Positions 3-26,956 of a DNA stretch of 50,837 nt are shown here, piece by piece. Both the position numbers and the translations under genes were made by a program. The DNA is from Candidatus Zapsychrus exili (lineage in GTDB: Bacteria; Omnitrophota; Gorgyraeia; Zapsychrales; Zapsychraceae): assembly GCA_030765585.1 (NCBI GenBank), contig JAVCCJ010000113.1, positions 1 through 50,837 of the forward strand. Direction: 5' to 3'. The notes below the pieces were generated by a model, which ran no database searches, was not told where the DNA came from, and saw only the letters and a program-made list of their open reading frames with translations. The number at the start of each line of letters is the position of its first letter. The first letter of the stretch is position 1.

Positions 3-566
3 ATAGACAATCTGATCAATAAAGCCAATATAAACAATGATAAAAAGGTAGAAAAACTCAAACAAGAACGCATCAGGCTTGAGACTGCCCTCTCTCAAGT
101 GAAAGCAAAAATAAACAAGCTTATTGATGCTATTGAATCAGGACAAAATTTTAAGTCTTTGCAGGAAAGAATGCAAAAGCTGGAAACTGAAAGAGAAAAC
201 TTTGAAGTTAAGATATCTGAAGCAGATTTTGAAATACAAAAAATTGAGCAGGAAATTCTCAGCGCAGAAACTATTCGAAAAAACTTCAAACAACTGAATG
301 ACATCATTGACAAAGCAAAACCACAACAACTTAAAGATATCCTCGCAAATATAATCGAAATAGCTGAATACCACGAATCACAAAGTGATGATGCGGAAGG
401 ACATATAAAGATAAGCTATTTTGAACAACCCAACATTAGGTTCCCCAAAAATACAAAAAGCGAACAACTCAATAAAGAATTGTTCGCTCAGTGTATGAAT
501 TGGCTCCCTGATAAGCGTCTAAGATCTTTATATATAAATTATGAAGATCACTCTGAGATAGCCTAG
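3..566 (+). CDS. Large serine recombinase (integrase), C-terminal part; 5' end outside the window
   Basis: The frame is open from position 3 (IDNLINKAN...). It has a long coiled coil (KAKINKLIDAIESG...LQERMQKLETERE), then 'LKDILANIIEIAEYH...GHIKISY', ending near 'WLP', which resembles large serine recombinase C-termini. The catalytic domain is not visible. Confidence 0.7.
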   Translation: MDNLINKANINNDKKVEKLKQERIRLETALSQVKAKINKLIDAIESGQNFKSLQERMQKLETERENFEVKISEADFEIQKIEQEILSAETIRKNFKQLNDIIDKAKPQQLKDILANIIEIAEYHESQSDDAEGHIKISYFEQPNIRFPKNTKSEQLNKELFAQCMNWLPDKRLRSLYINYEDHSEIA

Positions 567-3500
567 GCACTGCAGGAGTATTTTGCATTATTTCTCTGAT
601 CATTTCATAAAGCACTACATTGTTATCGTCAAGAAGCTCTTTGATAGCTTGCTCCAAAGTCATATTTAAATCATGCTTATAATTTGTAAATAAATTCAAT
701 GCTTCATTAATAAAAACGTCAATCTTTTTTTTAGTTTGCATATACTCTTTAGACCCTGCTACCATCGCATTATCTATAGGAGTGTTCTCAACAGAAATGC
801 GTGTCGGTGATTTTCCATTGACAGGAGGCTGTCTTGACACCTCTTTTATATCTACAATAACATTTTTGACAACAGTTATCCCTGCCCTACTTGTGAAAAA
901 ATATCCGGAGATCTTTACCAGCTTATCCGCATTATTAACTATATTTATACGCCCTTTAGGAGTGATATCAGACAAATCGACTGGATTGCCTTCAAAAGTA
1001 ATTTCATTAAGCTCAAAAGTATTCAACCCTTTAAGTGCTTCGATAATTTTTGTTTTATCAAGTTCTGTTCCTTTGAAATCTTCAAACTTTACCTTCTTCT
1101 CTAAAGTAGAAGGTGTCGCTAGCATAGCTTTATCTTTAGCGTATTTATTACGTGCAATACGATTGTAAAGCTCGTCATCATCACTGGTAATAATAAAATT
1201 AATAGCTTTCTCCCCTTCATTCTCATAAAGAATTTTATGTAGAGAAAATTTCTTGCTATAGCCCTGCAAGGCTTTAACTACTTCTGTAATGTTAATTTCT
1301 CCCCAATTACCCTCTGTTGTTTTAGCTGTATATACGCGAACAAGGGCAATACTTTTATCTTGCATAGCTTGTTTTAATACCTCTAAGGCTTCATTGTAAT
1401 CTTTATGATTATACTGCTTATAATAAGAGACAGCAGGATCATTCTCAATGTCTTGCACAAAATCAAAACGATTTACTATTTTATTTGCTATTTTTTCTAA
1501 AACAAGCAAATGATCAGCTGCTTTTTGTCTTATCGCACGTTTGCGCGCCAAGCTTTCATCCGCTTCTTGATCTCCTGTATCATATAATACGAAAACTTTT
1601 ACTTTACGATTACTTACGCCCTTAAAAGTAAAACTATGCACAGCACAGTCTGTACTAAGATCTAAGCCGAAAACATCATTAGCTGCGATTATTTCTTTAT
1701 TCTTTGTCTGAATTACAAATGAATCCACACCACTATTATCTTTAATATAATTAACAACCTGCTCTCTTCTTCCTCTTAATCCGCCCCCCCTATAATCATA
1801 TTTACTAGCGCGTAATTTAGTTTTTAAGCCTACATTCATCCTAGGGCCAATATTATTTTGATCAATTTGCTCTCTAATCTTAGATATAATTTTTTTATTT
1901 TCTTCAGACTTTACATCAGTTTTATTCCAATTTTTGCTACCGTCACTATAACTACGGTTATAGTCATAATAATCATCATCATATGCTCTACTTCCCGAAC
2001 GTGAAGTTTTCGAACTAAACTCAATTTTATGTGGAAATGCATTTGTTTCGCCGACCTCCCAGCTGCTTTTTCCTTTTTTAGAAAGAATAACATACGAGTC
2101 ATACTCCAGACCTTCTCCGTATACATAAAACTTTAATTCCTCAACAAGACGTCTAGAGGTAAGTCCGCGTTTTGAATAATTAAGAGATACCTCCTCGCCA
2201 TTAGAATCAAGGCCTACAAATTTATCTACAGTTAAATGCCCAGAAACCGCATTCTCAAAAGCTCTAATAACTACATCAAACCCAGCCATCTGATCTACAA
2301 CTGACATATTAAATGTTATACTAGGTACCCCTTCTTTAAACTCATCATCATTTTGTTGCACATCTTGTCCCAATTCTTCGCTTCCTTCAATTGTTGCTTT
2401 TTTCTCTTTCTTGCTTGGCATACCTAAAATTGTTTTAATTCTTTTAAGAAGTCCAAACCCTGCTATTTTTTTCTTACCAGAATCGCTTAGCATTGCAGAA
2501 TCGCTTACAACCTCTGCGTTCTTCATAAAAGCACCAAAACCACCAGAGAAATATTTCTTAGGTATGATTTCCTGACTGCTTGGATCATATTCTTCTTTTA
2601 TATAATTGTACGCACCTTGTTTATAAGTCTTAAGGTATTTATTATAGATATCAAGCTTCGTATTTTTATCAACATCATCAACTCCAACTACTTTTCTTTT
2701 ATCAGCGTAAAGTTGACCCACGAGACTATTTTGAAGATTTTTCTTAAACCAATCAGCTAGAATAAGAGAATTGTATATTTGACGAAGTGGCGCAAAATGC
2801 GTGCCGCTATTTACTTCTTTTTCTAGCTCAGGGATGACTATTGATTTGATAATATTTGTTGCGTCATTGCGAGGAGTCGAAGACGAAGAAGCAATCTCAT
2901 CTTTTTCTGAGATTGCCGCGCTCTGCTTTGCAGAGCTCGCAATGACATCCTCTAGATATTCTTCCTCTAGCATCACCTTTAAACTTGATTCAGCAACAAA
3001 CGCAGCACCTTCATTAACATAAACAACAACCTTATTGGGCACTATCCAAACTCTATTTAAAGTATCTGTCGGTATTTCACTTATTCCAAATTCCGCTTTT
3101 GTTCTTTTATATATCTTGTCCCAGAATTTCTTGCCTGTCTCAGACTCTGGATAAATTAAAGACGACATGAGCTTCTTTAACAGATAATCTTGTGCTAAAA
3201 GATCGCGACCCATTTGTGTAACACTTAAATCATCTGGAATGATTCTGTTTTGTTCACCAGGCGCAAGGTTGACCCACAAATCCTTTTCAGGAATAGTTAA
3301 TGATGCCAAGAAATATCTAATAAGCTTATCCGCCTCTTCTTTAAAAGTTTCTCCTTTTATATTGCTATCGCCTTCATTAACTAGAAAATCAAATTCTAAA
3401 GGATTCTCTGGATGAAGAACAAGACCTTGTATCATAGGTGGCGTAAATGCAGGGCTTAAAGAAAGCATTACAGGCGGCAATGCAGGGGCAAATACATTCT

Positions 3501-3594
3501 GCGCAAAAGCCGGCGATGGCAAAATTGTGCCAAAAGAAAATACTAACAAGATTATAAAAGAAAATACTTTTTGGAATCTTTTAAATGATGACAT
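469..3594 (-). CDS. Large secreted modular protein (conserved ~350-aa N-domain plus D-x-A-M-delimited modules), probably 3'-truncated
   Basis: Signal peptide (...PSPAFA/Q) and AAGGAG RBS. The N-domain is clearly paralogous to 21560..26956 (HPENPLEFDFL, YFLASLT.P..DLWVNL, GRDLLAQDY.LK, LRQIY.SLILA.W, YIKEEYD..SQ.IIPKKYFSGG). Contains DSAM, DKAM and DNAM motifs but lacks the paralog's C-terminal tail. Confidence 0.85.
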   Translation of the reverse strand: MSSFKRFQKVFSFIILLVFSFGTILPSPAFAQNVFAPALPPVMLSLSPAFTPPMIQGLVLHPENPLEFDFLVNEGDSNIKGETFKEEADKLIRYFLASLTIPEKDLWVNLAPGEQNRIIPDDLSVTQMGRDLLAQDYLLKKLMSSLIYPESETGKKFWDKIYKRTKAEFGISEIPTDTLNRVWIVPNKVVVYVNEGAAFVAESSLKVMLEEEYLEDVIASSAKQSAAISEKDEIASSSSTPRNDATNIIKSIVIPELEKEVNSGTHFAPLRQIYNSLILADWFKKNLQNSLVGQLYADKRKVVGVDDVDKNTKLDIYNKYLKTYKQGAYNYIKEEYDPSSQEIIPKKYFSGGFGAFMKNAEVVSDSAMLSDSGKKKIAGFGLLKRIKTILGMPSKKEKKATIEGSEELGQDVQQNDDEFKEGVPSITFNMSVVDQMAGFDVVIRAFENAVSGHLTVDKFVGLDSNGEEVSLNYSKRGLTSRRLVEELKFYVYGEGLEYDSYVILSKKGKSSWEVGETNAFPHKIEFSSKTSRSGSRAYDDDYYDYNRSYSDGSKNWNKTDVKSEENKKIISKIREQIDQNNIGPRMNVGLKTKLRASKYDYRGGGLRGRREQVVNYIKDNSGVDSFVIQTKNKEIIAANDVFGLDLSTDCAVHSFTFKGVSNRKVKVFVLYDTGDQEADESLARKRAIRQKAADHLLVLEKIANKIVNRFDFVQDIENDPAVSYYKQYNHKDYNEALEVLKQAMQDKSIALVRVYTAKTTEGNWGEINITEVVKALQGYSKKFSLHKILYENEGEKAINFIITSDDDELYNRIARNKYAKDKAMLATPSTLEKKVKFEDFKGTELDKTKIIEALKGLNTFELNEITFEGNPVDLSDITPKGRINIVNNADKLVKISGYFFTSRAGITVVKNVIVDIKEVSRQPPVNGKSPTRISVENTPIDNAMVAGSKEYMQTKKKIDVFINEALNLFTNYKHDLNMTLEQAIKELLDDNNVVLYEMIREIMQNTPAVPRLSQSDLHNLYIKILDAYQGANSYTERTILY
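495..515. mobile_element. Probable att junction of an integrated element (tRNA-3'-like TGGCTCCCTG)
   Basis: 501-510 tggctccctg is the reverse complement of CAGGGAGCCA, which looks like a tRNA 3' end. It lies inside the 98-bp convergent overlap between the recombinase and the 1041-aa ORF. Confidence 0.45.
2863..2946. repeat. 84-bp palindromic element inserted in frame in a CDS (RPE/MITE-like)
   Basis: Terminal inverted repeat GTCATTGCGAG...CTCGCAATGAC, internal GCAATCTC/GAGATTGC and GCTCTGC-ttt-GCAGAGC stems. GC-rich against an AT-rich background; 84 bp equals 28 codons. Confidence 0.85.
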
Positions 3595-3621
3595 TAGACT
3601 TGCTCCTTTTAAATAGATAAA

Positions 3622-3713
3622 TATGCTTATTAAGCATAAAAATGAATTAATTTTTTAAGATTTTTCTTATTACCGTGGCTGGATTAATGCGACTCGGATT
3701 TTAATCGCATTAA
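3622..3713. promoter_or_regulatory. Two inverted repeats in the leader of the 1041-aa gene
   Basis: TATGCTTA-t-TAAGCATA (3622-3638) and TTAATGCGA-N12-TCGCATTAA (3684-3713). Confidence 0.4.
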
Positions 3714-3865
3714 AAATAATTTCTAACTTAAATATATATTCTATAATAAATTTTATTAATATTTATATAAGTATAATATATATTTAGAAAGAAAACAAGT
3801 CTATTTGGGTAGGAAATGAGGAAAATATACCTTATAGAGAAATGTGTCTACAACTAATGCTCTGA

Positions 3866-4192
3866 TTACGTACTCTTGTATAATTTGCCCTGTTTTGTGC
3901 GGTCAACTGACTCTAGCTTGCCCTGTTTTTGCAGTTGATTTATCAATAGCGATATCCAACTGCGACTCTCTCCGATAAACTCAGCCGTCTCGCTTGTTGT
4001 GTGTGGTGCGGTAAGGAAGCTTATAATACGCTGGCGAGTTGTCTCTTTACTAGCAGAAGGTCTATTCTGCACCTGAACTATTAATTCAAGTCTATTTTCA
4101 GCTAATTTAAACCTATCTTCTATCAATCTTAGCCTATTTTCTAGTTCTTTTACTCTTTTTTTACTCGGAAATAACCAGTTTAAAAGCGACAC
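3866..4192 (-). CDS. Small coiled-coil + winged helix-turn-helix DNA-binding protein
   Basis: GTG start with AAGGAG RBS. C-terminal 'RIISFLTAPHTTSETAEFIGESRSWISLLINQLQKQGKLE...GKLYK' fits a wHTH pattern. Confidence 0.75.
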   Translation of the reverse strand: MSLLNWLFPSKKRVKELENRLRLIEDRFKLAENRLELIVQVQNRPSASKETTRQRIISFLTAPHTTSETAEFIGESRSWISLLINQLQKQGKLESVDRTKQGKLYKST

Positions 4193-4319
4193 TTTATTCT
4201 CCTTTTATTCTCATTCTAATAGCACATTTGTTAGCTAACTTAACAAACAGTTAACAAGTATAATATTACTAGGAAATACTCCAAAAAGCAACAAAAATTA
4301 ACTCTTAGGCAATTCAGTT

Positions 4320-4865
4320 CGCGCGGACCGAATTCAAATTAACAATATTGGGGATAGACCCCCGTCTGTCCAAAATTCTCAAAGAAAATTTTATAATAAT
4401 ACTCCCCTGCTAATTTGTTTAATGCATAAGGAGAAACTAGCTTAGGTAGATGCTCTTCTTTTTGTGGAAATTGGTCTGTGTCAGCATAAATTGCAGAAGA
4501 TGAAGCAAGAACAAAACGTTTAACCTTTTACTTAGCTGCTGCGGTAAGCATAAAAAGTGTTCCGTTGATATTTGCCTCATTGAAAAGCTCAGGCTCTTTC
4601 ATTGAACCAAGAGCAGAACATAAAGCAGCTTGATGAGTGACATAATCAATTGACTGACAGGCCTTATCGGCAAGTACCTTTATCCCTTATATCGCCACGA
4701 ATTAGCTCAAACTTATCTGCGCTTAAGCCCTCTGCAAATTTAAGATTTTCTTCTGCCCCTGATGAGAAATCATCAAGCGCTCGCACAAAATTACCTTCAG
4801 ATATCAAGTACTCTGCAATATTTGAACCAATAAAACCAACGCCCCCCAGTAACTAAAAATCTTAC
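4320..4865 (-). pseudogene. NAD-dependent epimerase/dehydratase (extended SDR) pseudogene
   Basis: Manual translation gives FLVTGG/VGFIGSNIAEYL...RALDDFSSG...LIRGDIRD, HQAA, NINGT, KRFVLASSSAIY and SPYALNK (YxxxK). Broken by an extra G in the G6 run at ~4842-4847, further frameshifts and an in-frame TAA near 4530; truncated after FGPR. Confidence 0.9.
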
Positions 4866-4867
4866 TA

Positions 4868-5260: not shown

Positions 5261-5262
5261 AA

Positions 5263-5676: not shown

Positions 5677-5723
5677 TGTTCTCCCCTTTAATATAATTTA
5701 ATTTATTCTAAACAAATATTTTT

Positions 5724-7607
5724 TTATCTTCTTACAGACACGCAGTTACCATCATAAGTACATTCTCCCCAAATAGTTTGACCGCGCGAATTATACGTTC
5801 TGCATCTTTCCCCGGGCGTTGGATTATGAACACAATAAGACAATGTTGTTCCAGAATTAATGCAATCGCCAGCAGTACACTCATTCCCATCATTACATTC
5901 ACCATCTTTATGACATGTAATTGTACCTGCTGAACAATCTTCCGGACAAAGCTCAGAATTTTCTTCAGCATCGCATATTCCATTTCCGCAAAGTTCTATT
6001 GAGCCTTCATCACCTTCGCCGCCGCAGGTTGATAAGAACAAGCAAGCATTAGTACAAACCTTAATATTTCCTTTTGGTGGCTTTGCTGGACAAACGTCTG
6101 AATTACTTCCTCCATTATCACACGCTTCAAAAGGCGTATCTACATTTCCGTCTCCGCAATAAGGGCCAATAACCTCTATTATAGTACAAGACTGCGAACA
6201 ATATTCACAAGTCTCATCATAAGCGGCCTCACAAGCAACTCCATTGCTACTACCATTATCACACTCTTCAGGAACTTCACCTAGCCCATCACCACAAGAA
6301 ACAGTTGCGCTTCCTGCACAATCTAAAGAACAGCCGTCAGATGTAGGACAATTCTTAACGCTATAATCTGAACATAACATTGAATAGCCAGAAACAGGTC
6401 TGCAATCGCACCCACAAGGCCCATTGCAACCATATGAATCTTCATCTGGAACAGTAAATGGAGGATTACAATTTGGACATGAGCCTTCGTCGACATATCC
6501 AACACACTCGTATTCGCATATAGGTTCACAAGAATTACCGTCCCATAAAAGCCCTTCTATACAAGCTGTTGCGGATACAACATTGCTCCATTCACTACTG
6601 TTAAATTCACCTGGACTAGTCTCTTCTTCTGCTCGCACTCTATAATAATATGTAGTCTGAAAATCAATATTCTCGTCACGCACCGTTAGATTCGTAGTTG
6701 GAGTAGACATACCAGCTGGGCTAAAAGTAGGGGATTCAGATCTATCAAGAAAATATCTATTTATAATTGTCGGAGATGGATTTGGAACTTGCCAAGCAAG
6801 ATCTACCCACCTTCCATCTCCTGCTTCAGCTGATAAATTTTTAGGTATACCTGGCACCTCTCCACAATCTTCAAAACAATTAGTTTCATTCTCTTCTCCG
6901 TCACAAATTCCGTTTCCGCAATAAACTTCTCCTCCTCCTGTGCAAGGTGGCTCTGGTTGCATCCACTCACATCCTTCTGTAGAAAATAAATCACATTCAC
7001 TTTCTCTATCAAAATCTGAACAATTCCAATCACCATCGTTAGGAGCCTGTTGAGAAGATAATTGGCACCACTCACCACCCCCAATAGGGCCTGTCCACCG
7101 ACATCCGCTTATGCGACCACATTGATCTTCATCTAGTCCACCACAACCACCACTACCACCAGTACAAATATTCGGACAACCACAATCAGCAGCGCAATTT
7201 ATATTATCTTCAACAGCATCACAAGTTCCGTCTCCACAACAAGTGACCTCATTTAAAGCAGCCTGAATTTCATCAATATGCAATTCTCTTATAAAAGTAA
7301 TGTTAGGATCGACAAAAGCTTTAGTAATATTCAAAGGAGATAGAGCATAAACCTCTTTGATAGCGCCCCTTAGCTCATCAATATGAGCTGCTTTGATGGG
7401 GGTTAAATTAGAGTACAGATTTTCGTTAGTCCAAGATTGATTTGGCAGACCACACTCATTACGCTTATTATTTATATTCGTTCTTAAACCATCAACTACT
7501 GCTACACTAAAATTTGTTGGAACGGCAGAAGCAATACTTGGAGCAATCGTAAGTACAATAGCCACAAAAGCTATAGTACAAAGTATTTTAAAATATGATT
7601 TTCTCAT
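5724..7607 (-). CDS. Secreted Cys-rich surface protein A (HIxELR domain, FN3, CGDG/CGNG repeats)
   Basis: Signal peptide; 'IKAAHIDELRGAI'; FN3-like 'PKNLSAEAG..WVDLAW...TYYYRVRA'; Myxococcus-type CGDG..EECD repeats. Confidence 0.85.
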   Translation of the reverse strand: MRKSYFKILCTIAFVAIVLTIAPSIASAVPTNFSVAVVDGLRTNINNKRNECGLPNQSWTNENLYSNLTPIKAAHIDELRGAIKEVYALSPLNITKAFVDPNITFIRELHIDEIQAALNEVTCCGDGTCDAVEDNINCAADCGCPNICTGGSGGCGGLDEDQCGRISGCRWTGPIGGGEWCQLSSQQAPNDGDWNCSDFDRESECDLFSTEGCEWMQPEPPCTGGGEVYCGNGICDGEENETNCFEDCGEVPGIPKNLSAEAGDGRWVDLAWQVPNPSPTIINRYFLDRSESPTFSPAGMSTPTTNLTVRDENIDFQTTYYYRVRAEEETSPGEFNSSEWSNVVSATACIEGLLWDGNSCEPICEYECVGYVDEGSCPNCNPPFTVPDEDSYGCNGPCGCDCRPVSGYSMLCSDYSVKNCPTSDGCSLDCAGSATVSCGDGLGEVPEECDNGSSNGVACEAAYDETCEYCSQSCTIIEVIGPYCGDGNVDTPFEACDNGGSNSDVCPAKPPKGNIKVCTNACLFLSTCGGEGDEGSIELCGNGICDAEENSELCPEDCSAGTITCHKDGECNDGNECTAGDCINSGTTLSYCVHNPTPGERCRTYNSRGQTIWGECTYDGNCVSVRR

Positions 7608-7619: not shown

Positions 7620-9044
7620 TTATTTACTTATGTTCACACAGCTACCATCATAAGTACATTCTCCCCAAATAGTTTGGCCGCGCGGATTATACGTCCTGCA
7701 TCTTTCCCCAGGCGTTGGATTAAGAACGCAATAAGACTCTTCTGTCCCAGGATTAATACATTCACCAACGGTGCATTCATTCTCATCATTACATTCGCCA
7801 TCTTTGTTACATGCAACTTGAGGACCGACGCAATCTTCTGGACAAAGCTCTACATTTTCTTCAGGGTCGCATATTCCGTTTCCACAAAGTTCTGATGAGT
7901 TTCCACCGTTACCACTGTTACCACTACCTTCACAACCACCATATACCAATACACAACTATCAGAACAATATGGGGTTGGTGTTTCTGGCGAACAATATGT
8001 TACATTGCCTTCTCCATCATCACATTCTTCGGTAGCTGGATCGTGATCTCCGTCTCCGCAATAGCCATCCTCTCCTAAGTGCTGACAAGTGCCTGCTCCG
8101 TCACAAGTTCCAGTTCCATAGTCACATGACGTACCTGCCGCAAGATTATCATTAACACATACTTTCATTTCTTGACCTTGTGGCTTTACGCACTCATCAT
8201 TAGTACAATCATTTGAGTCATCACAATCATCATCTATATTACACTCCATTACTTCACAAGAGTTGCCATCCCATAAATATCCTTCTTCGCAAGCTGTTGC
8301 TGAGACAGTATCGCTCCAGTCGCCTAAACTCTCCCAAACACCAGGTTCAAACTCATATTGCACTTTTACTCTATAATAATATGTGGTCCCCAAATCTATA
8401 TCTGTATCAATCGCGCCCTGCACAAGTCCACCAGTAAATTCAATTGGAGTATCAACTGGATTCTTAAAAGGATTTAATTGTATTGATCTGCTAAGAAGTT
8501 GTCTAGCTGAGTTCACAATCGGGTACGATTGTTCCCAAGTTAAATCTATCCACCATCCATCGCCTGCTAAAGCTGTAAGATTTTGAGGTATTTCTGTTGG
8601 CGCTCCACAATCTTGGACACAATTCATCACGGTTTCGGCAGAATCACAATTGCCGTCTCCACAACAAGGAGCATCATTTAAAGCAGACCAAACTTCATCA
8701 ATATGTGATTCCCTTAATATAGAAACTTCAGGATAGTTAAAATCATAAGTACCATTGTTTGGAGCTAATGCGTAAATTTCTTTAACGGCATCCCTTAACT
8801 CATAAATATGATCCGCTTTAACAGGAGTTTCGCCAGGAATCAATTCTTCATCTGACCAAGAATAATTCTCCTCTATACCACAAGCCTCACGCTTTTCATT
8901 TATACTAGATCTTATAGAATTAATTACCTCTACCCTAAAATTTGATGAGTTGGCAGAAGCAAAATTTGAGCTAACGACAAGTGCAATAAGCGAAAAAACT
9001 ACAATACAAAATATTTTAAAAAATAATTTTCTCATTGTAAGCAT
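7620..9044 (-). CDS. Secreted Cys-rich surface protein B, paralog
   Basis: Same architecture; C-terminus nearly identical to A (PTPGERCRTYN.RGQTIWGECTYDG). Confidence 0.85.
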   Translation of the reverse strand: MLTMRKLFFKIFCIVVFSLIALVVSSNFASANSSNFRVEVINSIRSSINEKREACGIEENYSWSDEELIPGETPVKADHIYELRDAVKEIYALAPNNGTYDFNYPEVSILRESHIDEVWSALNDAPCCGDGNCDSAETVMNCVQDCGAPTEIPQNLTALAGDGWWIDLTWEQSYPIVNSARQLLSRSIQLNPFKNPVDTPIEFTGGLVQGAIDTDIDLGTTYYYRVKVQYEFEPGVWESLGDWSDTVSATACEEGYLWDGNSCEVMECNIDDDCDDSNDCTNDECVKPQGQEMKVCVNDNLAAGTSCDYGTGTCDGAGTCQHLGEDGYCGDGDHDPATEECDDGEGNVTYCSPETPTPYCSDSCVLVYGGCEGSGNSGNGGNSSELCGNGICDPEENVELCPEDCVGPQVACNKDGECNDENECTVGECINPGTEESYCVLNPTPGERCRTYNPRGQTIWGECTYDGSCVNISK

Positions 9045-9139: not shown

Positions 9140-9420
9140 TTATCTACCACTATTTCCACCACATTTATCTACCAACTTACAACTTGTAGAACAATATGGG
9201 GTTCGTGTTGCATAAGTGCAAACCGATACATTGCGAAACCCATCATCACATTTTTCACCAAAAGACCTATCTATGTTTTCATCCCCGCAAAAAGGACCTG
9301 TAACTGTTATTGGTTCACAAGAACTTGAACAATAGTCGCAAAATTTGTTATATCCTGTTGTGCAATCATCTTCATCATTACAATCTTAATCTTTATCACA
9401 ATCTATAACTTCGGGATCTT
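9140..9420 (-). pseudogene. Decayed out-of-frame 3' extension of Cys-rich protein C
   Basis: Alternate frame reads DPEVIDCDKD*DCNDEDDCTTGYNKFCDYCSSSCEPITVTGPFCGDENIDRSFGEKCDDG...TPYCSTSC; TAA at 9386-9388. Confidence 0.8.
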
Positions 9421-11052
9421 ACTTCTTAAATGTCTACCAGACCCACCACCGCCACCAGATCTATGTATTACTTCAGAACAATCTCCTGCACAATAATCAC
9501 AAGGTTTAGGGGAACATTGAACTCCATTAAGCGCTCCGTCGTCACAAACCTCAAAACAAGGAGGCCCATCATCTAAATTACCATCTCCGCAATAAGGTGC
9601 TACAATCGTTTTTTCCGTACAATCAGAATCGCAATACGTACACTCTCCTCCACAAGGCATAGGACAAGCTTGCCCATTAGCTTCCCCGTCATCGCACTCC
9701 TCTTTACCTTCAGTAAATATACCATCACCACAATAAAGTTCCTCTACTGTTACTTCTTGGCAATCACTATCACAATATGTACAATCTGATAGCCACCCAG
9801 GAGTACATTCTTCTCCATTATCTAACCCTTCATCGCATTCTTCATCAGGAGGCTCTGTTAATCCATCTCCGCAAGAAAGAGAGCAATCGTCAGAACAACT
9901 ATTTCCATCTTCTTCAGGCAGGCCATAACAATCCCCATCTCCGCACCATTCTGTAAATGCCGCTGTATTGCACGATAATGAACAAAACGTGCATTCTTCC
10001 CCGTAAGATGCTGGAGTACAAGAAGGACTATTTTGATCTCCGAGATCGCACTCTTCACCCGTATCAATGTTTCCATCTCCGCAATAGCCTCCCTCTGTAA
10101 TTACACAAGTTCCCGCCCCATCACAGGTTCCGGTTCCTAAATTACACGGCGTGCCTGCATCTTCATCCCAATAAAAACATTGTTTATTTGGTTCAGCTGG
10201 TGGTGGTGGTTTTAAGCACAAATTTTGAGTACAATCATTTGAATCATCACAATCCGAAGGCACAAGACACTCTCCAATAAGTTCACAAGAATTACTAGTA
10301 CTACTCCATAAAAGCCCTTCTTCGCAAGCTGTCATTGAGACAACATTACCATACTCACCAGTAATACAACTGACACCTGCTTCACATATTCGCAATGCTA
10401 CCTTATAATCATATTTAATCTCAAAATCTATGTCTTCATCAAACAAGCCGCCTACAGCAGTAGTATGTATACCAGTACTTTCACCCAAAGCGGCTTGAGC
10501 TTCGGTTTGCTTAGTAATAGCATAACCATAATACCACCCAGGCGGAAGAACATCTAATTCTGGCTGATTCCAAGCCAATTCTATCCATCTTCCATTACCT
10601 GCTATAGCTGAAAGAGATATTATCGGAAGTTCCTCGCAATCACTCGGACAATTACTACTGTTCTCAACAGCATCGCAGGTGCCGTCTCCGCAACAAATAA
10701 CATCATCTAATGCTTTTTGAATTTCAGTGATATGTGATTCTTTCATCATAGTCATATTGGTGTCAACATAACCATAAGTGCCATTTAGCGGCGGCAACTC
10801 GTAAACTTCCAGAATAGCTTTTCTTAAATCCTCCATATGAGTCGCTCTTACAGGAGTTATGCCAGGAGCTAGTTCAGCGTCATTCCAAATATAAGCATCC
10901 AATTTACATTCAATACGCTTATCATTTATATCAGCTCTTAGCTTGTCTATTTTTGATACACTGAAATTAGTTGAAACAGCAAAGGCAGCGCAAGGAAAGA
11001 CCACTAGCATAATTAAAATTGCTATATATCTATATATCTTTTTATTTTTCAT
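9403..11052 (-). CDS. Secreted Cys-rich surface protein C, paralog
   Basis: Signal peptide, RATHMEDLR domain, FN3-like region, multiple CGDG repeats. Confidence 0.85.
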   Translation of the reverse strand: MKNKKIYRYIAILIMLVVFPCAAFAVSTNFSVSKIDKLRADINDKRIECKLDAYIWNDAELAPGITPVRATHMEDLRKAILEVYELPPLNGTYGYVDTNMTMMKESHITEIQKALDDVICCGDGTCDAVENSSNCPSDCEELPIISLSAIAGNGRWIELAWNQPELDVLPPGWYYGYAITKQTEAQAALGESTGIHTTAVGGLFDEDIDFEIKYDYKVALRICEAGVSCITGEYGNVVSMTACEEGLLWSSTSNSCELIGECLVPSDCDDSNDCTQNLCLKPPPPAEPNKQCFYWDEDAGTPCNLGTGTCDGAGTCVITEGGYCGDGNIDTGEECDLGDQNSPSCTPASYGEECTFCSLSCNTAAFTEWCGDGDCYGLPEEDGNSCSDDCSLSCGDGLTEPPDEECDEGLDNGEECTPGWLSDCTYCDSDCQEVTVEELYCGDGIFTEGKEECDDGEANGQACPMPCGGECTYCDSDCTEKTIVAPYCGDGNLDDGPPCFEVCDDGALNGVQCSPKPCDYCAGDCSEVIHRSGGGGGSGRHLRSKIPKL

Positions 11053-11114: not shown

Positions 11115-13271
11115 TCATTTTACAGTTGTGCATCGTCCGCTAAAACATTTCCCCCTCATTCTTCCTATCTTACAAGCGCTTCCATCTGATCTATCTAAAT
11201 TTCTACAATAAGATTCCGTAGTTCCAGGATAGACGCACATATCTATTGTGCATGGATTTGTATCTGCACATTCAGAATCACGGCTACATTTAATTGTACC
11301 TGTACCTCTGCTAGTTGTACTACAATCTTTGGAACAATTACTGCTAGTCTCAATCGGAATATTACAAGTGCCATCCCCACAAGAACCCCCAAAAACTTCT
11401 ATTTCAATACAACTTGTTGAACAATATGTGCACTCATCTCCATAAGGAGGATGACAATGGATTCCATTATACCTATCGTTATCACACTCTTCAGGAACTT
11501 GAACTATTCCATCTCCACAAACGGTAGCAGCACCACAATCATCGGGACAATTATAGCTAAACTCGTGCTCATCAGCATCGCAAATACCATCGCCACAATA
11601 AGGACCGACAATCTCTATTCTTGTGCAAGTATCTGAACAATAAGTACAAGTTACACCATAACTAGCATGACAAGGTATTCCATTGCGAGTGCCAGAATCG
11701 CATTACTCGCCATGATTTATAACATCATCCCCACAAACTGCCGCACAATCAGCAGAACATGTATTACTAGTTTCATTTCCTGAATTACAAGTTCCATCTC
11801 CACAATAAGAACCTGTTACTGTTTCTAGAGAACAGTTGCTACAATATTCACAACTTCCATCATAAGGCGGTACGCACGGAGATTCATTGCCATCGCATTC
11901 TTCGCCAGAGTCAATAGTTCCATTTCCACAAGTTTCTTGGCAATCAACAGAACATGTGCTACTATTCTCATCTTCATCATTACAAATACCGTCTCCGCAA
12001 TAAGGACCAATAACCTCTACTATTTTACAAGCAGACGAACAATATTCGCAAATTTTATCATAAGCAGGTTCACAAGCCGTTCCATTACTACGACCATTAT
12101 CACATTCTTCATCGTCATCAATAATATTATCATCATTGCAAGGCATGGATACCTCTATTATAGTACAAGTATCCGAACAATAGGTGCAAGTCCCTCCACT
12201 AGGATTGCAAGGCTTACCATTATTCCTGCCATTATCACATTCCTCAGGAACTTCAGATAGTCCATCACCACAAGAAGCAGTTGCACTTCCTGCACAATCT
12301 AAAGAACAGCCGTCAGATGTAGGGCAATTTTTGACACTATAATCTGAACATAACATTGAATAACCAGAAGCAGGTCTGCAATCGCATCCACAAGGCCCAT
12401 TGCAACCATATAAATCTTCATATGGAACAGTAAATGGAGAATTACAATTTGGGCATGAGCCTTCGTCGATATATCCAACACACTCGGTTTCGCATATAGA
12501 TTCGCAAGAATTACCATCCCATAAAAGCCCTTCTATACAAGCTGTGGCGGATACAACATTGCTCCAATCACTAACACTTTGATTACCTGAATCCAAATTT
12601 ATTTCCAGTCTTACCCTATAATAATATTTGACCCTATAACTTATGTCTGTATCACGCACGAGTGATCTTGTAGTAGAGATAGATGTTATAAGTGGAGAAA
12701 AGGTTGAAGAGTTCGATTTCTGAAGAACAAATATATACTTAAGTTCTTCGCTGTAAAATGCTGCTTTCCAAGCCAATTCTATCCATCTTCCGCCTCCTGC
12801 TATAGCTGCAAGAGTTTCTGGCACTTGAACTTCTATACAATCAGCGGCGCAATTGCTACTATTTTCAACAACGTCACAAGTGCCGTCTCCACAACAAGTA
12901 GCCCCATCTAAAGCAGTCTGAATTTCTTCAATATGCGACTCTTTCATCATAGTCATATTGACATCAGCATAACCATAAGTGCCGTTTAGAGGCGGTAGCT
13001 CATAAACTTCCACAATGGCTTCTCTTAAATCTTTCATATGAGTCGCTCTTACGGGAGTTATACCAGGGGCTAGTTCAGCGTCATTCCAAGTATAAGCGTC
13101 CAATTTACATTCAACACGCTTATCATTTATATCAGCTCTTAACTTGTCTATTTTTGATACACTAAAATTAGTTGTTTTAGCAAAGGCAAGATTTAGGTTT
13201 ATTGCAGATAAAATAACTATAACAAATAAAATACGAAATATGTTTAAGAAGGGTTTTTTAACAATATTCAT
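11115..13271 (-). pseudogene. Cys-rich surface protein D interrupted by one in-frame TAA (522 aa expressed; 718 aa if repaired)
   Basis: TAA at 11703-11705 in 'HGE*CD', where paralogous repeats have EECD. The same frame continues 195 codons of CGDG repeats to TGA at 11115. Confidence 0.85.
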
Positions 13272-19231: not shown

Positions 19232-19232
19232 T

Positions 19233-21225: not shown

Positions 21226-21256
21226 AGAAATTTATATTCTGGTTGTAAATATAAGT

Positions 21257-21311: not shown

Positions 21312-21559
21312 AATATTCACAAAAATTTTACGCAGAATGCGTGCGAACGCACTAAATTATATAATCTATATAGATATTATTAATAATATGAAAGTTTTAT
21401 TCTAATTATTATAAATTCCGGTTGGATTTATACGATAATTCAGATATCTTTTTCGCTTTGCATAAATTCATACAACAACTTATGTTCGCTCGTCTTAAAG
21501 CTCACTCTATAAGTTACGTATTTATTTATATCAAACTTTATAGACCATGTAAAGAGGAT

Positions 21560-24500
21560 TTACAAAAAATATATATCTTCTTTTATGACAGCTCTAGACA
21601 ATTGAAGGGCAACTTCTTGTTCTTCTTCTTTTTCTTCTATATCTAGACCTAAGAGAGGTAGAACGCTATTTATTGGAATTATATTAATAATTACTGGCAA
21701 AAATCCCTTAATATCAACACCTTTAATAGAGTCAAACGCATTAGCATCAAAAATAATTTCACCTTCGCTTCCCCTAGCATCAAGTTCAATACTATTCATA
21801 TTAATACCACCAACGCTAGACACCATAGCTTTGTCATTTATATGATACGACTCAACCAATTTTAACAATATCTCTGGTAAGCTATCCTTTACCTTTAATA
21901 GCTGACTTAATATTTCAATATCAGCTATTTGTTCATATCTATCAACTGCTACTGAACTATTTTCTTTCACCAAAACTCCAAGAATGTCTTTTATCTCATT
22001 CATCATTTCTGTTCGCGTAAATTTCTCAACAAAATCATCTTCTGTGATATTTAAATTTATACCCTTTAAAAACTCGGCCGCACTCATAGGAGTTATTCCT
22101 TTTGAAATGATGCCTCTTGTTCCATCAACAGAAACAATAGAATTACTATCAATAGCTTCATTCTTTAATAAAATCGCACCGCCTTCTATAAACTGCATAT
22201 TATTTCTTACACTAATTACTGCTACAATTCCGCTTTCTTTTAAAATATCAACAGCATGAGATGTCCTTGCGCCTTTCTGCATAATAATAGCACCGATCAT
22301 TTGCTTTCCATCTTCTGTTTTTGTCTGTTCAATAAAAGAAATGGTTTCATCCGCGCCCAAACTATCTGTCACCAAAACCAGACCGTCTACTAACTCATCT
22401 TCTTTAGATTTCTTGTATTCTTCAATAATCTTATTTCTTATATCCTCATTAAATTCATGTCCTTTTATTGCTATTACTCTGCCTCTATATCCGCCCTCTG
22501 AAGCACCAATTGCTTCTCCTTGTTTTATAATAGAATTACCATTGTTAGGCACCACAGGAAAAGTCTTGAGTTTTGCTTCACTTGAAGCATCTCTTGCTTG
22601 AAGAATAAAAAATGTATCAGCAGTTACAGTTAACTCTACTTCTGTATCTGTAGCTAAATAATCATCTAGTTCTTGCATCTGGTCTACAAATTTATCTCTC
22701 CATTCTTTTGATTCTATTATTTTCTTAAAATCTGTTATGGCAGCAGCATTTCCAATAGCAATATCATCTCCCTGAGAAGATGCTTTATAATCTCCCGTCA
22801 TATTCCACTCAAATAAATTGCCTCTTCTTGTTTGTAGAACAGCTGCTCCAGCTCCATCTCTAGTATTTCCAAAAACCATTGGCTGTATAATAATGGCAGA
22901 TCTCTTCCATCGCTCTGATAAATTAATTGATTTTAAATAGCCTACTGCCTTTTCTTGTCCTTTATGTACAGCCTTAACAACAAGTTCTATCTGCTCGTCC
23001 AAATCCTCAGGAATACTATTTTTACCCGCTTTGTCTTCTACATATTTATGATAAGCTAATGCCACTTGCTTCATTTGATCTGCAGTTAATTTATATTTTA
23101 CATTAATGTTGAATTCATTCTTCATATTATATAAGATTACATCAAAGCTTTTACTGTTTAAAGAAAGCACATCAACCGCAAATCCTTTTACAAGTTTCCT
23201 ATAACAATCCCATGCTGTCCAAGACGCATCTTCTTTTGATAGCCCAGAGGCTATAAACATATCTATCAATCCACCTATATTCTTTTGATTTAATCCAACA
23301 TTGGTAATGGTAGGCAGCTGTCCAGGAAGCGTAAAATAAGCACCTGATCTAACAGATACAAGCATCGGCTCTTTCATATCTCCATACTTACCTTTAAATA
23401 TATTTCCTTCATTTTCTCCTATATATTTATGTAAATCTCCTAAAGCCAAATCAAAAACAGAATTCTCTCCTTTAAAAATATTATCAACATCTACTTCTTC
23501 CATGTCCAAAGGAAATACTACGGCAGGCGGTACATTCAAACTTAATAATGCAGACCTTACAAGCCCAATGGCTTTTGCACCTAATAAATATCGCCCGACA
23601 TTACTTATTGTTTCCTTTAAATATCCTTTATCTAAATACTTACCCACAAGATGATATGGCCTAGCATTTTCTTTATCTAAAATAACTTCATCATAAAATA
23701 ATTCTTTAGACGTATCTTTGCCGTCGGATAAAGACTCTTGCCATCTATTATCCACATAACCAACTAATTTATTAATAAACTTAAACAAGAAAGATAAACT
23801 ATGATCATAATTCTCGACATTAAACTTCTTTTCTTCCATAGAAAATAATTGTACCAATTCCGGCAAATGACCTTCTAGCTTATCTACAATATTATCTAAC
23901 TTATTTTTCAGGTATAAGACAAGATCTTTTAACTCTTCTAAAGTTATATCATTTCTTTGCATACTATCTACATAATCAATAAACGAAATAGGAACAGAAC
24001 CATTTGTATAGTTTGACTCTATCAATTCTCTTAAAAAAGAAACAGCTCCATTAATATTATTCTTATCAATTCTTGTAAAATTCTTTGATATTATTTGAGG
24101 CAAAATTTCAGCTTCCAACAAAGAAAGCAGTTGCTCGAGTTTGTATAAATAAAATCTATCATCACGAAACTTGGCTCCACCAGTGGCATTTCCAGTGTCA
24201 TCCCTACCTTCCTCTTCTCTAAACCTATCGTCCAATTCTTCAGGATTGTACTTGACATCATCACTAAACAATAAATCTTTTACTTCTAATTTGATGTCTG
24301 TAATCAAAGATAGTGCACCAATATAATCTCCCGTTAAAATCCTGCTGCTGATCTGATCTACTTCTCCTAAATCAATCTTATTAGAGAATTTATAATATAT
24401 TTCTTCAATATATCTATCAAAACGCTTTATATGATTATTAAGTTCTCCTCTATTAAATCTTCTACTTAATTCTCTGTAAGCATAAATATAACCTCCAAAG

Positions 24501-26956
24501 CTTACAGTTTGTTCAGTAATATATTCTTCTCCCAATATTTCAGCAATTTGTTCTTCACTAGCGTTTCTTAATCTCTCATATTTTGTTTCTCCTAAAGATT
24601 TCGGAAGACTGCCTAACAGTTCTTTAAGCTGCTTTGCATACCCTTTTTCAGCTTCATAGTGCACAGCACCATCAGGAATTCTTTCTATTCTCATATCATA
24701 TACACTCTTAGGATACAGACCTTTTACGTAATTCTTCTCGCCTTTAAAATAATCCACCTGATAATCTTCATCTATTAAAACTTTAGGATCTTGCGTCAAA
24801 AGATACTCCAAATATCTTTCTAACAATCCAACGCACTGAATGCCTAAGAAATTATGAATATTGTCTCTAATAAATCCATAGATGCCTATACCATATGAAC
24901 CCTGCCTTGTTCGCCGTCTTAAAGGATGATCTGCTCCAACATTTACTTGCCCAGATACATCTTTTAACATTAACCTTGCAAGAAGCCTTACAAGATAATA
25001 ATCTCTCTTCCCTTCTATCTGATTAATTAAATGTATTAGTTTTCTAGTATAATGTTCATCAGTTTCTAGAATAAAATATCCCTTCTCTAAAATATTCTTT
25101 GATGTCCAAGCCAATAGATCTTGTGACAAAGTTATATCCATTGGAACAATTGCAAGAATAAGATTGAAAAGATGTTTTTGTTTTCTTACATTCTTTGAAT
25201 ACGGTAATTTTACAATTCTTTGCAATATCTCCTCAAAAATTTCTATTTCCCCTGCTGCCTTAAGAGCTGATGCAAGATTCTCAATAACATCATTAACTGC
25301 ATGGGAAGCATTATCAGTTACATAGGAAGCATAATTAACTTGCCTTCCATCTACCTGATAATTCTCGTCTAACAAATCGTTAAGAACCCTAAACAAGATA
25401 TTCAAAATGCCCTTTTTATATTTCTTAAATAGCTCTAATCGATCTAAAGAAAAATTCTTTCTGTTAACATCTAATATCCCATTAAATTTTAACTTTCTTA
25501 ATTCATAAAAATCAATTTTATAGGTAGGCTTATCTACTTCTTTGAACCATTTGCTTAGATTAGGAGCACTATCTTTGCTATTTAGTAATATGCTTGCATA
25601 CCTTTTAGCTAATATCTTTTTAGACACATCTAGCTTCTGTAAAATGCCTCTTGTCTCAAGCCTGATACCATCTCGAGGATGGTCTAAATTATTTAAAAAT
25701 GCTTCTTCAATTTTTTGTCTTTGCTTCGACTTGCTTTTATACCTAGCAACTAATTCTTTTAAAGAATTCAACCTAATGTTTTTATCTATATTATCAAGTT
25801 GCCTAATATGCCAATTAGTACCACGAGACATCATCGCTTCATCGCTACCCTGTGGATTTAATTGAACTGATTCAACAAATTCAGAACCCACTTTTGCCAA
25901 CTGAATTTTGCTTATATCGTCCGTACGAGATACTGTCATCGCCTTATCTTTGAAACCGCCTGAAAAATACTTTTTAGGAATAATTTGTTGCGAGGTGAAG
26001 TCGTATTCCTCTTTTATATAGCTATATACACCTTTTTTGTAGGCATCCATATATTGATTGTAAATATCTTCTTTTGCAGTAGGTGAGCTTAAATTGATTC
26101 CTTCAACCTTGTTCTTATCAATATAAACTTTTGAAATAATGCTGTTCTTAACTTTTTGTTTATACCATTTAGCAAGTATCAGCGAGTGATATATCTGTCT
26201 TAAAAGAGCAAAATTCTCTCCCTGGTTCACTTCTTTTTCAATAGCAGGAAGAATAATCTCTTTTATTAATTGAGAGTTTAAAGATTCTTTGTTGTTACCT
26301 ATCATACGATCGCTATCTAACATTACCTTCATCTTAGACTCAACTACATAGACGGTTGTACCGTGCTCATAAATGGTAGCAGTGTCTGGAAGGATCCAAA
26401 CCTTATTAAATGTATCTGTGGAAATATCAGTAGTACCAAACTTATCCTGAGCTTGTTTATATATTTTATCCCAAAACTTTTTACCCGATTTACCTTCTGG
26501 GTGCATTAGAGATGCTGTTAATTGTTTTAGAATATAATCTTGCGCTAATAAGTCGCGACCTAGCTCTGTTGAACCCAGTTCATCTGGGACAATTCTATCT
26601 TTTTCTCCTGGCGATAAATTAACCCACAAGTCCCCTTGCGGAACTGTTAAAGATGCCAAGAAATAATTAATCAAACGTTTACTTTCGCTTTTCAAGTCTT
26701 CTCCTTGAACCTTTGAGTGACCGTTATCAATAATAAAATCAAACTTAAACGGATCTTCTGGGTGAATTGTCATACCTTTTAGAAAAGTTGGCACATATGT
26801 AGGACTAGCTGTAATAAAAGTTCCTGGAGCGGGCAAACTAATTGCCTGTGCAAAAGACAACGAGGGGGCAATTGAACTAAAAATAAGTGAGAAAACAAGC
26901 AAAAATGATATAACTTTACAAATATAGTTATGTTTTCCTTTAACGAAAGAACTCAT
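21560..26956 (-). CDS. 1798-aa secreted modular protein: conserved N-domain + PPDK-like ATP-grasp and phospho-His module + conserved-looking C-tail
   Basis: Signal peptide; N-domain paralogous to 469..3594. PPDK-like motifs LGAKA, PMLVSVRSGA...LPGQLPTITNVGLN, AWDCYRKL, IIQPMVFGN, SQGDDI, EVELT, FILQAR and GARTSHA. Tail DKAM..VGGINMN...GFLPVII. Confidence 0.88.
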   Translation of the reverse strand: MSSFVKGKHNYICKVISFLLVFSLIFSSIAPSLSFAQAISLPAPGTFITASPTYVPTFLKGMTIHPEDPFKFDFIIDNGHSKVQGEDLKSESKRLINYFLASLTVPQGDLWVNLSPGEKDRIVPDELGSTELGRDLLAQDYILKQLTASLMHPEGKSGKKFWDKIYKQAQDKFGTTDISTDTFNKVWILPDTATIYEHGTTVYVVESKMKVMLDSDRMIGNNKESLNSQLIKEIILPAIEKEVNQGENFALLRQIYHSLILAKWYKQKVKNSIISKVYIDKNKVEGINLSSPTAKEDIYNQYMDAYKKGVYSYIKEEYDFTSQQIIPKKYFSGGFKDKAMTVSRTDDISKIQLAKVGSEFVESVQLNPQGSDEAMMSRGTNWHIRQLDNIDKNIRLNSLKELVARYKSKSKQRQKIEEAFLNNLDHPRDGIRLETRGILQKLDVSKKILAKRYASILLNSKDSAPNLSKWFKEVDKPTYKIDFYELRKLKFNGILDVNRKNFSLDRLELFKKYKKGILNILFRVLNDLLDENYQVDGRQVNYASYVTDNASHAVNDVIENLASALKAAGEIEIFEEILQRIVKLPYSKNVRKQKHLFNLILAIVPMDITLSQDLLAWTSKNILEKGYFILETDEHYTRKLIHLINQIEGKRDYYLVRLLARLMLKDVSGQVNVGADHPLRRRTRQGSYGIGIYGFIRDNIHNFLGIQCVGLLERYLEYLLTQDPKVLIDEDYQVDYFKGEKNYVKGLYPKSVYDMRIERIPDGAVHYEAEKGYAKQLKELLGSLPKSLGETKYERLRNASEEQIAEILGEEYITEQTVSFGGYIYAYRELSRRFNRGELNNHIKRFDRYIEEIYYKFSNKIDLGEVDQISSRILTGDYIGALSLITDIKLEVKDLLFSDDVKYNPEELDDRFREEEGRDDTGNATGGAKFRDDRFYLYKLEQLLSLLEAEILPQIISKNFTRIDKNNINGAVSFLRELIESNYTNGSVPISFIDYVDSMQRNDITLEELKDLVLYLKNKLDNIVDKLEGHLPELVQLFSMEEKKFNVENYDHSLSFLFKFINKLVGYVDNRWQESLSDGKDTSKELFYDEVILDKENARPYHLVGKYLDKGYLKETISNVGRYLLGAKAIGLVRSALLSLNVPPAVVFPLDMEEVDVDNIFKGENSVFDLALGDLHKYIGENEGNIFKGKYGDMKEPMLVSVRSGAYFTLPGQLPTITNVGLNQKNIGGLIDMFIASGLSKEDASWTAWDCYRKLVKGFAVDVLSLNSKSFDVILYNMKNEFNINVKYKLTADQMKQVALAYHKYVEDKAGKNSIPEDLDEQIELVVKAVHKGQEKAVGYLKSINLSERWKRSAIIIQPMVFGNTRDGAGAAVLQTRRGNLFEWNMTGDYKASSQGDDIAIGNAAAITDFKKIIESKEWRDKFVDQMQELDDYLATDTEVELTVTADTFFILQARDASSEAKLKTFPVVPNNGNSIIKQGEAIGASEGGYRGRVIAIKGHEFNEDIRNKIIEEYKKSKEDELVDGLVLVTDSLGADETISFIEQTKTEDGKQMIGAIIMQKGARTSHAVDILKESGIVAVISVRNNMQFIEGGAILLKNEAIDSNSIVSVDGTRGIISKGITPMSAAEFLKGINLNITEDDFVEKFTRTEMMNEIKDILGVLVKENSSVAVDRYEQIADIEILSQLLKVKDSLPEILLKLVESYHINDKAMVSSVGGINMNSIELDARGSEGEIIFDANAFDSIKGVDIKGFLPVIINIIPINSVLPLLGLDIEEKEEEQEVALQLSRAVIKEDIYFL

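Follow-up and report, generated by a model that had tools for sequence, protein, structure and literature searches.

A clade-restricted Omnitrophota family of predicted exported proteins carrying variable enzyme cargo on a constant head and tail

The window analysed here is the 50,837-nucleotide contig JAVCCJ010000113.1 of Candidatus Zapsychrus exili, a member of Omnitrophota, and is contig C13 of the 129 contigs of a 2.04-Mb genome (GCA_030765585.1, referred to as G000). It encodes two long proteins, P0001 and P0002, whose parts are listed in Table 1. A BLASTP comparison aligned residues 1-353 of P0001 with residues 1-335 of P0002 (170/358 identities, 47%; E 1e-108) and gave no other significant similarity outside this shared N-terminal part, which bears out the original prediction that the two open reading frames (ORFs) share a signal peptide and an N-domain ending at KKYFSGG and then diverge. 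This domain is called the head below. As read from the sequence, both leaders consist of basic residues, then a hydrophobic core and then an AxA-type site. The six D-x-A-M motifs on which the prediction was built translate, as it had said, to DSAM, DKAM and DNAM in P0001 and to DKAM, DEAM and DKAM in P0002. The last of these does precede the GGINMN...GFLPVII segment, at a distance of 4 residues; this segment belongs to a second constant domain, the tail. The material between head and tail is referred to as cargo and the short peptides that punctuate it as joints.

Table 1. Parts of P0001 and P0002 in the window (HMM, hidden Markov model)
Feature	Position	Strand	Basis
P0001, 1041-aa family member: signal peptide, head, three D-x-A-M-delimited cargo modules, no tail	469..3594	-	head HMM
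P0001 Sec-type signal peptide, residues 1-31, predicted cut AFA/Q	3502..3594	-	read from sequence
P0001 head, residues 32-352, KKYFSGG end at 2539-2559	2539..3501	-	head HMM E 4.5e-154; BLASTP vs P0002
90-nt two-hairpin REP-like element, in frame in P0001 head, +30 residues vs P0002	2863..2952	-	alignment gap; fold -40.8 kcal/mol
P0001 joint 1, DSAM, residues 365-368, 13 residues past head	2491..2502	-	translation
P0001 joint 2, DKAM, residues 821-824	1123..1134	-	translation
P0001 joint 3, DNAM, residues 941-944, then 97-residue end piece	763..774	-	translation
P0002, 1798-aa family member: signal peptide, head, cargo, tail	21560..26956	-	HMMs
P0002 Sec-type signal peptide, residues 1-36, predicted cut SFA/Q	26849..26956	-	read from sequence
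P0002 head, residues 37-334, KKYFSGG end at 25955-25975	25955..26848	-	head HMM E 5.1e-150; AlphaFold2 model
P0002 joint 1, DKAM, residues 337-340, 3 residues past head	25937..25948	-	translation
P0002 joint 2, DEAM, residues 372-375, closes 31-residue spacer	25832..25843	-	translation
P0002 cargo part 1, residues 376-1115, no recognisable family	23612..25831	-	Pfam, NCBIfam, PDB sequences without match
P0002 cargo part 2, residues 1116-1634, N-terminal half of pyruvate phosphate dikinase	22055..23611	-	TIGR01828, PF00391, PDB 5jvn
P0002 joint 3, DKAM, residues 1708-1711, 4 residues before tail	21824..21835	-	translation
P0002 tail, residues 1715-1775, GGINMN...GFLPVIINIIP...LLG	21632..21814	-	tail HMM E 6.1e-13
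P0002 variable acidic extension past tail, residues 1776-1798	21563..21631	-	sequence

The cargo of P0001 has no match in Pfam, NCBIfam, PDB sequences or the ESM Atlas, and no tail is found in P0001 or in any frame of the 468 bases downstream of it. The REP-like element in its head recurs as a 97.8% identical copy at the same place in a paralogue on contig C43, even though the two heads share only 55% protein identity. In P0002, the second cargo part consists of the ATP-grasp and phosphohistidine swivel domains of a pyruvate phosphate dikinase (PPDK) with the TSH motif kept (GARTSHAV, 22250-22273). It covers positions 14-517 of the 865 of TIGR01828 (176 bits, cut-off 843), matches PF00391 and aligns to residues 20-344 of PDB 5jvn; the phosphoenolpyruvate/pyruvate-binding barrel is missing and the equivalog cut-off of TIGR01828 is not reached. 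The one weak match to the unassigned cargo of the two proteins, a polysaccharide lyase (7o78, E 0.0039), probably arose by chance.

P0001 and P0002 are members of a clade-restricted Omnitrophota family, here called head-cargo-tail. A head HMM built from 112 relatives recovers the heads of both ORFs at E<=1e-148, and a tail HMM was built from 88. With the P0002 head as query, phmmer against 1.84 billion cluster representatives gave 8,026, 7,409 and 6,215 matches at 1e-3, 1e-10 and 1e-30, respectively, and the head begins within the first 75 residues in all 150 of the matches listed. At E<=1e-3, the P0001 head retrieved 4,234 proteins in the range 572-1822 aa, from 7,913 candidates, and a further 1,249 below that range, from 3,103 candidates. 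Where a source is named, it is Omnitrophota/Omnitrophica or a metagenome, apart from one partial record labelled Pacearchaeota.

The tail comprises about 60 residues of the form GGI(D/N)x...GFxPVIINxxP...LLG, after which comes an extension that varies between members and is often acidic. It was found in 90 of 121 proteins examined, and is absent from the other 31, in some because the contig ends. Thus, the proposal that constant N- and C-terminal domains surround a variable cargo is supported for the family and fails for P0001 itself, which is tailless. Pfam and NCBIfam contain no model for either domain.

Range was assessed in 201 sampled Omnitrophota genomes. The head occurs in 26 of them, namely in eight of the nine genomes of its own order and in several families of the same class, and in none of the 63 genomes of the largest sampled family. 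The tail is narrower still, as the P0002 tail used as query finds 8 of the 201 genomes, all of them head-bearing and all from the same order. The tail HMM agrees with this, recognising a tail in all 27 members from seven genomes of the order and in one of 13 from class-level relatives, in which the head runs straight into ...YFSGGVDL....

Counting paralogues with the two HMMs, as the original prediction had proposed, gave 16 ORFs with a head and 16 with a tail in the host genome. Nine of these carry both, the family ORFs number 23, and the head HMM also finds one 84-aa fragment. Most incomplete members touch contig ends, and family genes are strikingly often located there (C25, C43, C60, C80, C86, C103 and C114). 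Short-read assemblies probably break at the repeated sequences of head and tail, and copy numbers in draft genomes are therefore lower bounds. One member, P0201 (438 aa, on 5 contigs), has a head, a 14-residue linker and a tail and carries no cargo. Since such members exist, head and tail together form the constant core. P0201 is one of five short members in which head and tail are 14-162 residues apart and which contain no D-x-A-M at all, so that the motif comes with cargo.

Within the host genome, D-x-A-M is confined to this family as far as enrichment is concerned. The 23 family ORFs (32,155 aa) hold 81 occurrences where 2.7 are expected from composition, a 30-fold excess, and the other 1,670 kept ORFs (575,059 aa) hold 45 against an expected 45.6. 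This comparison with the whole proteome had been named as a check on the motif, which it upholds. Eleven of twelve scrambled or neighbouring control patterns stayed near expectation, the other being M.AD (12 vs 2.7).

The motif also keeps to fixed places. All 16 head ORFs have a site 2-56 residues past the head, in many cases two of them spaced by 20-36 residues, and 13 of the 16 ORFs with a tail have one that precedes the tail by 5-16 residues. The 31-residue spacer closed by a second joint, as in P0002, is a pattern that recurs in many members. None of 47 cargo sites falls inside a Pfam-matched stretch, where 13.1 would be expected from 27.8% coverage (P ~2e-7, assuming independent sites). 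The predicted role of D-x-A-M as a marker of module borders is thus borne out. Profiles for guanylate kinase, enolase, PGK, UDPGP and PFK start 3-17 residues after the Met, and in the glycolytic members the sites lie at the GAPDH/PGK, PGK/enolase, UGPase/PFK and PFK/PGI borders. The consensus extends to D-x-A-M-(V/I/L/M/T)-(A/T/S)-(D/E), and because synonymous positions vary at the sites, the constraint lies mainly on the peptide. The idea that the post-head spacer is a duplicated first half of the tail was dropped, as the tail HMM scored 113 post-head segments no better than 113 control segments of cargo.

Joint peptides are not the same throughout the family. The cargo of 119 metagenomic relatives contains 116 D.AM motifs against 9.6 expected (12-fold, in 61 proteins), and in the same cargo (A)SSP(V/I/L/M) is ~37-fold enriched at the same positions as D.AM. 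By protein, 51 have D.AM only, 25 SSP only, 10 both and 33 neither. A further candidate joint, RSE-x-R, was rejected, as it occurs twice in the cargo of these relatives and not at all in the host-genome family.

Joints were also scored in 40 members from 15 other genomes, with small samples of one to five proteins per genome. Like the host (81 D.AM, 1 SSP-type and 0 RSE.R), the genomes G129, G139 and G167 are of the D.AM type. In G151, a congener of G167, the joint is N.A[VI]L (10 vs 0.2 expected), located after the head, internally and 9-16 residues before the tail, and G169 has D.AQ (6 vs 1.5 expected), so that related genomes have Val or Gln at these joints where D-x-A-M has Met. SSP-type joints were found in G143, G157, G189 and G095, and no clear motif was found in the members scored from G141 and G079. 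Among the genomes scored, joint type goes with the genome. Such a concerted switch would be expected of a site that a factor encoded by the genome recognises, and suggests a trans-acting reader.

Pfam-recognised cargo was identified in 10 of 22 family proteins scanned (20 paralogues, P0001 and P0002). A 2,991-aa member carries two GAPDH modules, PGK, enolase and a class II aldolase, and a 2,027-aa member UGPase, PFK and PGI. The remaining cargo in the host genome includes guanylate kinase, methyltransferases with GNAT domains, HATPase_c, a helix-turn-helix (HTH) array and NUDIX. Precomputed Pfam domains among the head matches are of the same kind, with PGK, TIM, UGPase, phosphohexomutases, acyl-CoA dehydrogenase, NDK and RelA/SpoT as well as HATPase_c, methyltransferases, NUDIX, DnaJ and receiver domains. 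These are cytoplasmic-type enzymes and regulators. They form complete modules of enzyme size, placed between ...YFSGG and GGIDL....

The cargo enzymes are additional copies that have diverged further than their housekeeping counterparts. Stand-alone genes for PGK, enolase and GAPDH are present in the host genome and outscore the cargo copies on Pfam models; PGI is the exception, with a weaker PGI-type match (81.7 bits). Directly downstream of P0002 (17139-21036, - strand), the window contains a leaderless pentose-phosphate set of a split transketolase, transaldolase and 6-phosphogluconolactonase, and stand-alone cytoplasmic sugar metabolism therefore coexists with the predicted exported copies.

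The family is poor in cysteine, with 44 Cys in its 32,155 residues (0.137%) compared with 1.166% in other ORFs of at least 200 aa, a set uncleaned of spurious ORFs, which amounts to an ~8-fold scarcity. Of the four Cys in the 2,991-aa glycolytic member, one is in the leader, two are the catalytic ones of the GAPDH NASCTTN motifs and one is in the aldolase part. The housekeeping GAPDH keeps a second Cys in its catalytic motif. From this pattern we infer that the cargo enzymes are active extra copies that cross, or stay in, a place where free cysteines are harmful. Scarce Cys is known from autotransporter passengers, in which it reflects unfolded transport.

Four paralogous signal-peptide proteins of the window (474-627 aa; 5724-7607, 7620-9044, 9403-11052 and 11703-13271, - strand) have 7.4-9.4% Cys. 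They share an N-terminal region of ~130 residues, contain many CxxxC and CGDG repeats and have no Pfam match at E<=1e-3. As other signal-peptide proteins of the same window are this rich in Cys, the purge is specific to the head-cargo-tail family.

AlphaFold2 models the P0002 head as two long beta-hairpins on long helices (pLDDT 79.4, pTM 0.71). The cargo-less P0201 was modelled at pLDDT 75.9 and pTM 0.71, with tail residues 371-420 at pLDDT 70-91. No Foldseek match to the PDB was obtained for the head at E<=1e-3, nor a clear relative in the ESM Atlas, and the best Z in a VIA-align search of 48,161 chains was 4.1 for the head and 4.4 for P0201. Three lipid binders of the BPI/PLUNC type, latherin, BSP30b and Der f 7, come up repeatedly at Z 3.0-3.6 and offer no more than a weak lead.

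Taken together, these observations are consistent with an exported carrier, made up of head and tail, for active, Cys-purged enzyme modules that are joined by a genome-specific recognition peptide, probably a cut site. We regard the chances of this reading as about even. The chain would be exported by Sec and would stay unfolded or disulfide-free, like autotransporter passengers. Head and tail would then bring active "cytoplasmic" enzymes outside the cytoplasm, to the cell surface or to a partner or prey cell, with the PPDK-type ATP-grasp/phosphohistidine module as the putative load of P0002 and modules without assigned function as that of P0001. The joint peptide would serve for recognition, and most likely for cleavage, by a factor whose gene lies elsewhere in the genome, because the paralogues of one genome share a peptide and related genomes use another at the same positions.

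Several observations weigh against this carrier reading. Two GAPDH modules share one D-x-A-M interval, and some enzyme borders have no joint. The Ala codon of the motif ends in a purine at 69 of the 81 sites against a background of ~53%, and GCT makes up 11% of these codons compared with 39% when every Ala codon of the genes concerned is counted. A reading at the level of the peptide leaves this bias immediately ahead of the ATG unaccounted for. Four internal genes have one end only, with a head alone in P0001 and a C83 gene and a tail alone in a C39 and a C67 gene. No head is detectable on contigs C39 and C67, and the tail ORFs called there also lack a leader. As such one-ended internal genes occur, head and tail are not strictly required in one chain. 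No gene, whether for a protease or otherwise, was found whose occurrence follows that of the family. Finally, ATP- and NAD-dependent enzymes outside the cytoplasm would have no obvious supply of cofactors, unless they reach another cell.

The main rival is an uncleaved display scaffold, in which docking of head and tail, within one chain or between chains, would build a surface layer or fibre, the cargo would remain attached as the loops of an extracellular multi-enzyme coat and D-x-A-M would be a hinge or docking peptide. The existence of head-plus-tail proteins without cargo fits it, as do the modelling of the tail beside the head in one chain (pLDDT 70-91), the hydrophobic, strand-like GFxPVIINxxP segment of the tail and the internal genes with only a head (n = 2) or only a tail (n = 2), which could pair in trans. 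A mere hinge, however, would have no need of a consensus seven residues long that changes in step throughout a genome, and D-x-A-M is absent from the cargo-less members. We hold this scaffold to be doubtful, if worth keeping in mind.

The carrier reading can be extended to a phylum-specific delivery system, a "polymorphic effector" role for the family being possible. Omnitrophota are widespread, uncultured and mostly ultrasmall, and are thought to depend or prey on other cells. By analogy with MARTX toxins, whose logic would be similar and whose sequence is unrelated, a string of active metabolic and signalling enzymes, such as glycolytic enzymes, kinases, methyltransferases and the PPDK-type phosphotransfer module, might be carried by head and tail out of the cell after Sec export and pass into or onto a host or prey, where a genome-specific protease would cut the joints (D-x-A-M here, N-x-A-V-L or SSP-V elsewhere) and the released enzymes would rewire the metabolism of the partner to the advantage of the parasite. 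This extension is unlikely.

A further alternative is that the proteins are not exported, in which case the leader would be an N-terminal membrane anchor with the enzymes on the cytoplasmic face as fused assemblies for metabolism, and D-x-A-M a relic of fused start codons or an internal start. The cargo does consist of ATP- and NAD-dependent cytoplasmic enzyme types, enzymes start 3-17 residues after the Met, and the purine bias lies just before the ATG. Also, a 2023 preprint notes that the extracellular position predicted for glycolytic domains of Omnitrophota giants could be a topology error (10.1101/2023.11.21.568195). Yet the leaders have basic residues before the hydrophobic core and an AxA-type site after it, Cys is purged 8-fold with the catalytic Cys kept, and housekeeping copies are present. 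An internal translation start at the Met was rejected, as Shine-Dalgarno-like words precede 12.3% of D-x-A-M Mets, 10% of other internal Mets and 37% of gene starts, which leaves no enrichment of a ribosome-binding signal, and as the Met is replaced by Val or Gln in related genomes. We therefore consider cytoplasmic retention to be very unlikely.

The original prediction had named both proteins as candidate substrates of a type II secretion system (T2SS) driven by an adjacent F1-like ATPase cluster. The two ORFs do share the 50-kb contig with such genes and have Sec leaders, as T2SS substrates do. The region at 33518-50836 (- strand) holds a T2SS/pilus set of PilO, a PilM-PilN fusion, GspK, pseudopilins, GspG, GspF and a GspE with C-terminal PilZ, which runs straight into F1-type ATPase genes (beta, gamma, delta-like and alpha). 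The stretch also encodes two large proteins without clear Pfam family, with one weak, sub-threshold DUF5605 match.

Neither association nor linkage was found for this machine. A 443-aa protein of the locus (47406-48737), used as its marker, occurs in 101 of the 201 genomes, with 13 of 26 head-bearing against 88 of 175 head-less ones and 39 of 63 in the family that has no head at all. The 21 other host paralogues lie on other contigs and share no neighbours, and at the head-tail locus of G129 none of 23 other window proteins queried has a match within 20 kb. T2SS exports folded, often disulfide-bonded proteins, and the strong Cys purge therefore speaks against secretion by this route. Since the marker counts are noisy, through partial matches and paralogues, the link fails to gain support rather than being disproved, and we see very little prospect that it holds. 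That these are decaying or mis-assembled genes without present function is scarcely credible. The frameshift splits of two members into a head ORF and a tail ORF in different frames (C73, 6254-14492, and C119, 3375-11316; overlaps of 86 and 14 bases) and the many members ending at contig edges would fit such decay. Against it stand the long intact frames, the kept catalytic residues and the thousands of relatives that conserve head, tail and joint grammar, and contig breaks are to be expected at repeated paralogous ends.

When up to three flanking genes per side of the 23 family ORFs were compared all against all, no gene family was shared between different loci. An exported trypsin-like S1 peptidase and then an 837-aa STT3/PglB-type oligosaccharyltransferase lie at 27298-30583 (+ strand), both divergent from P0002. 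The peptidase was considered as the protease of the joints and rejected, as it is widespread in the phylum and its occurrence, in 14 of the 26 genomes with a head and 90 of the 175 without, is unrelated to the head; these counts are likewise noisy through partial matches and paralogues. Between the Cys-rich paralogues and the pentose-phosphate set, a 695-aa protein (13337-15424, - strand) combines a cyclic-nucleotide-binding domain, a ParA/MinD-like AAA_31 domain and a patatin-type phospholipase.

Long Omnitrophota proteins packed with "cytoplasmic" enzymes are an open puzzle. Passages of two preprints describe multi-enzyme long proteins of this phylum, including PPDK_N and glycolytic domains, as predicted extracytoplasmic, and raise their cleavage into pieces as an open question (10.1101/2023.11.21.568195; 10.64898/2026.06.07.730766). 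With a constant head, a constant tail and a joint at known positions that differs between close relatives, the head-cargo-tail family makes this cleavage question testable. If it is true that the enzymes work outside the cytoplasm of their producer, this would be a new mode of bacterial interaction. The head-tail cassette could also serve as a tool for enzyme export or display.

The Omnitrophota giants in these preprints (West-Roberts et al. 2023; "A complete-genome view of phylum Omnitrophota", 2026) are from the same phylum and, in the passages concerned, share PPDK_N, glycolytic, HATPase_c, NUDIX and methyltransferase domains and predicted signal peptides with the present family. They are set apart by their descriptions, as proteins of at least 10,000 aa with many transmembrane helices, C39/S8 peptidase and SecA-like domains. 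P0001 and P0002 have only 1,041 and 1,798 residues, where archaeovorin-type giants have tens of thousands, and none of the Pfam families that passages of the first preprint give as features of these giants (10.1101/2023.11.21.568195). Passages of both preprints contain no description of the head, the tail or the joint peptide, none turned up in full-text searches of the literature on Omnitrophota and Velamenicoccus, and no paper on Omnitrophota polyproteins was found.

At the level of single modules, the P0002 cargo has the ATP-grasp domain, the phosphohistidine swivel domain and the TSH motif in common with pyruvate phosphate dikinase, but lacks the barrel and is embedded in a predicted exported carrier. 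Polymorphic toxins place a variable toxin at the C terminus and an immunity gene downstream, whereas the variable part of the head-cargo-tail proteins is central and its matched cargo metabolic or regulatory. No recurrent downstream neighbour was seen in the host genome, where no search was aimed at immunity genes.

Among secreted proteins, autotransporter (type V) passengers resemble the family in their Sec leader and scarcity of Cys. Their beta-barrel takes 250-300 residues; no Pfam match to it was found, and only ~85 residues follow the last joint of P0002. MARTX toxins follow a like logic, in that swappable effector modules, enclosed by constant regions at both termini, are freed by cuts at the module borders. 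They use type I secretion without a Sec leader, and have glycine-rich repeats and a cysteine protease domain of their own. Pfam scans of P0001 and P0002 gave none of these families, and a Sec leader stands in place of a type I signal.

The cargo of type IX secretion in Bacteroidota, such as the gingipain polyproteins, likewise has a Sec leader, variable domains and a conserved short C-terminal domain, and some of it is cut into pieces after export. The whole of P0002 has no Pfam or NCBIfam match to Por_Secre_tail or the type IX C-terminal domain at E<=0.01, in an analysis in which type IX secretion genes were not looked for, and its tail is thus not a C-terminal domain of the Por_Secre_tail type. 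Compared with type IX cargo, the head-cargo-tail family has an additional constant head at the N terminus and a cargo of cytoplasmic-type enzymes.

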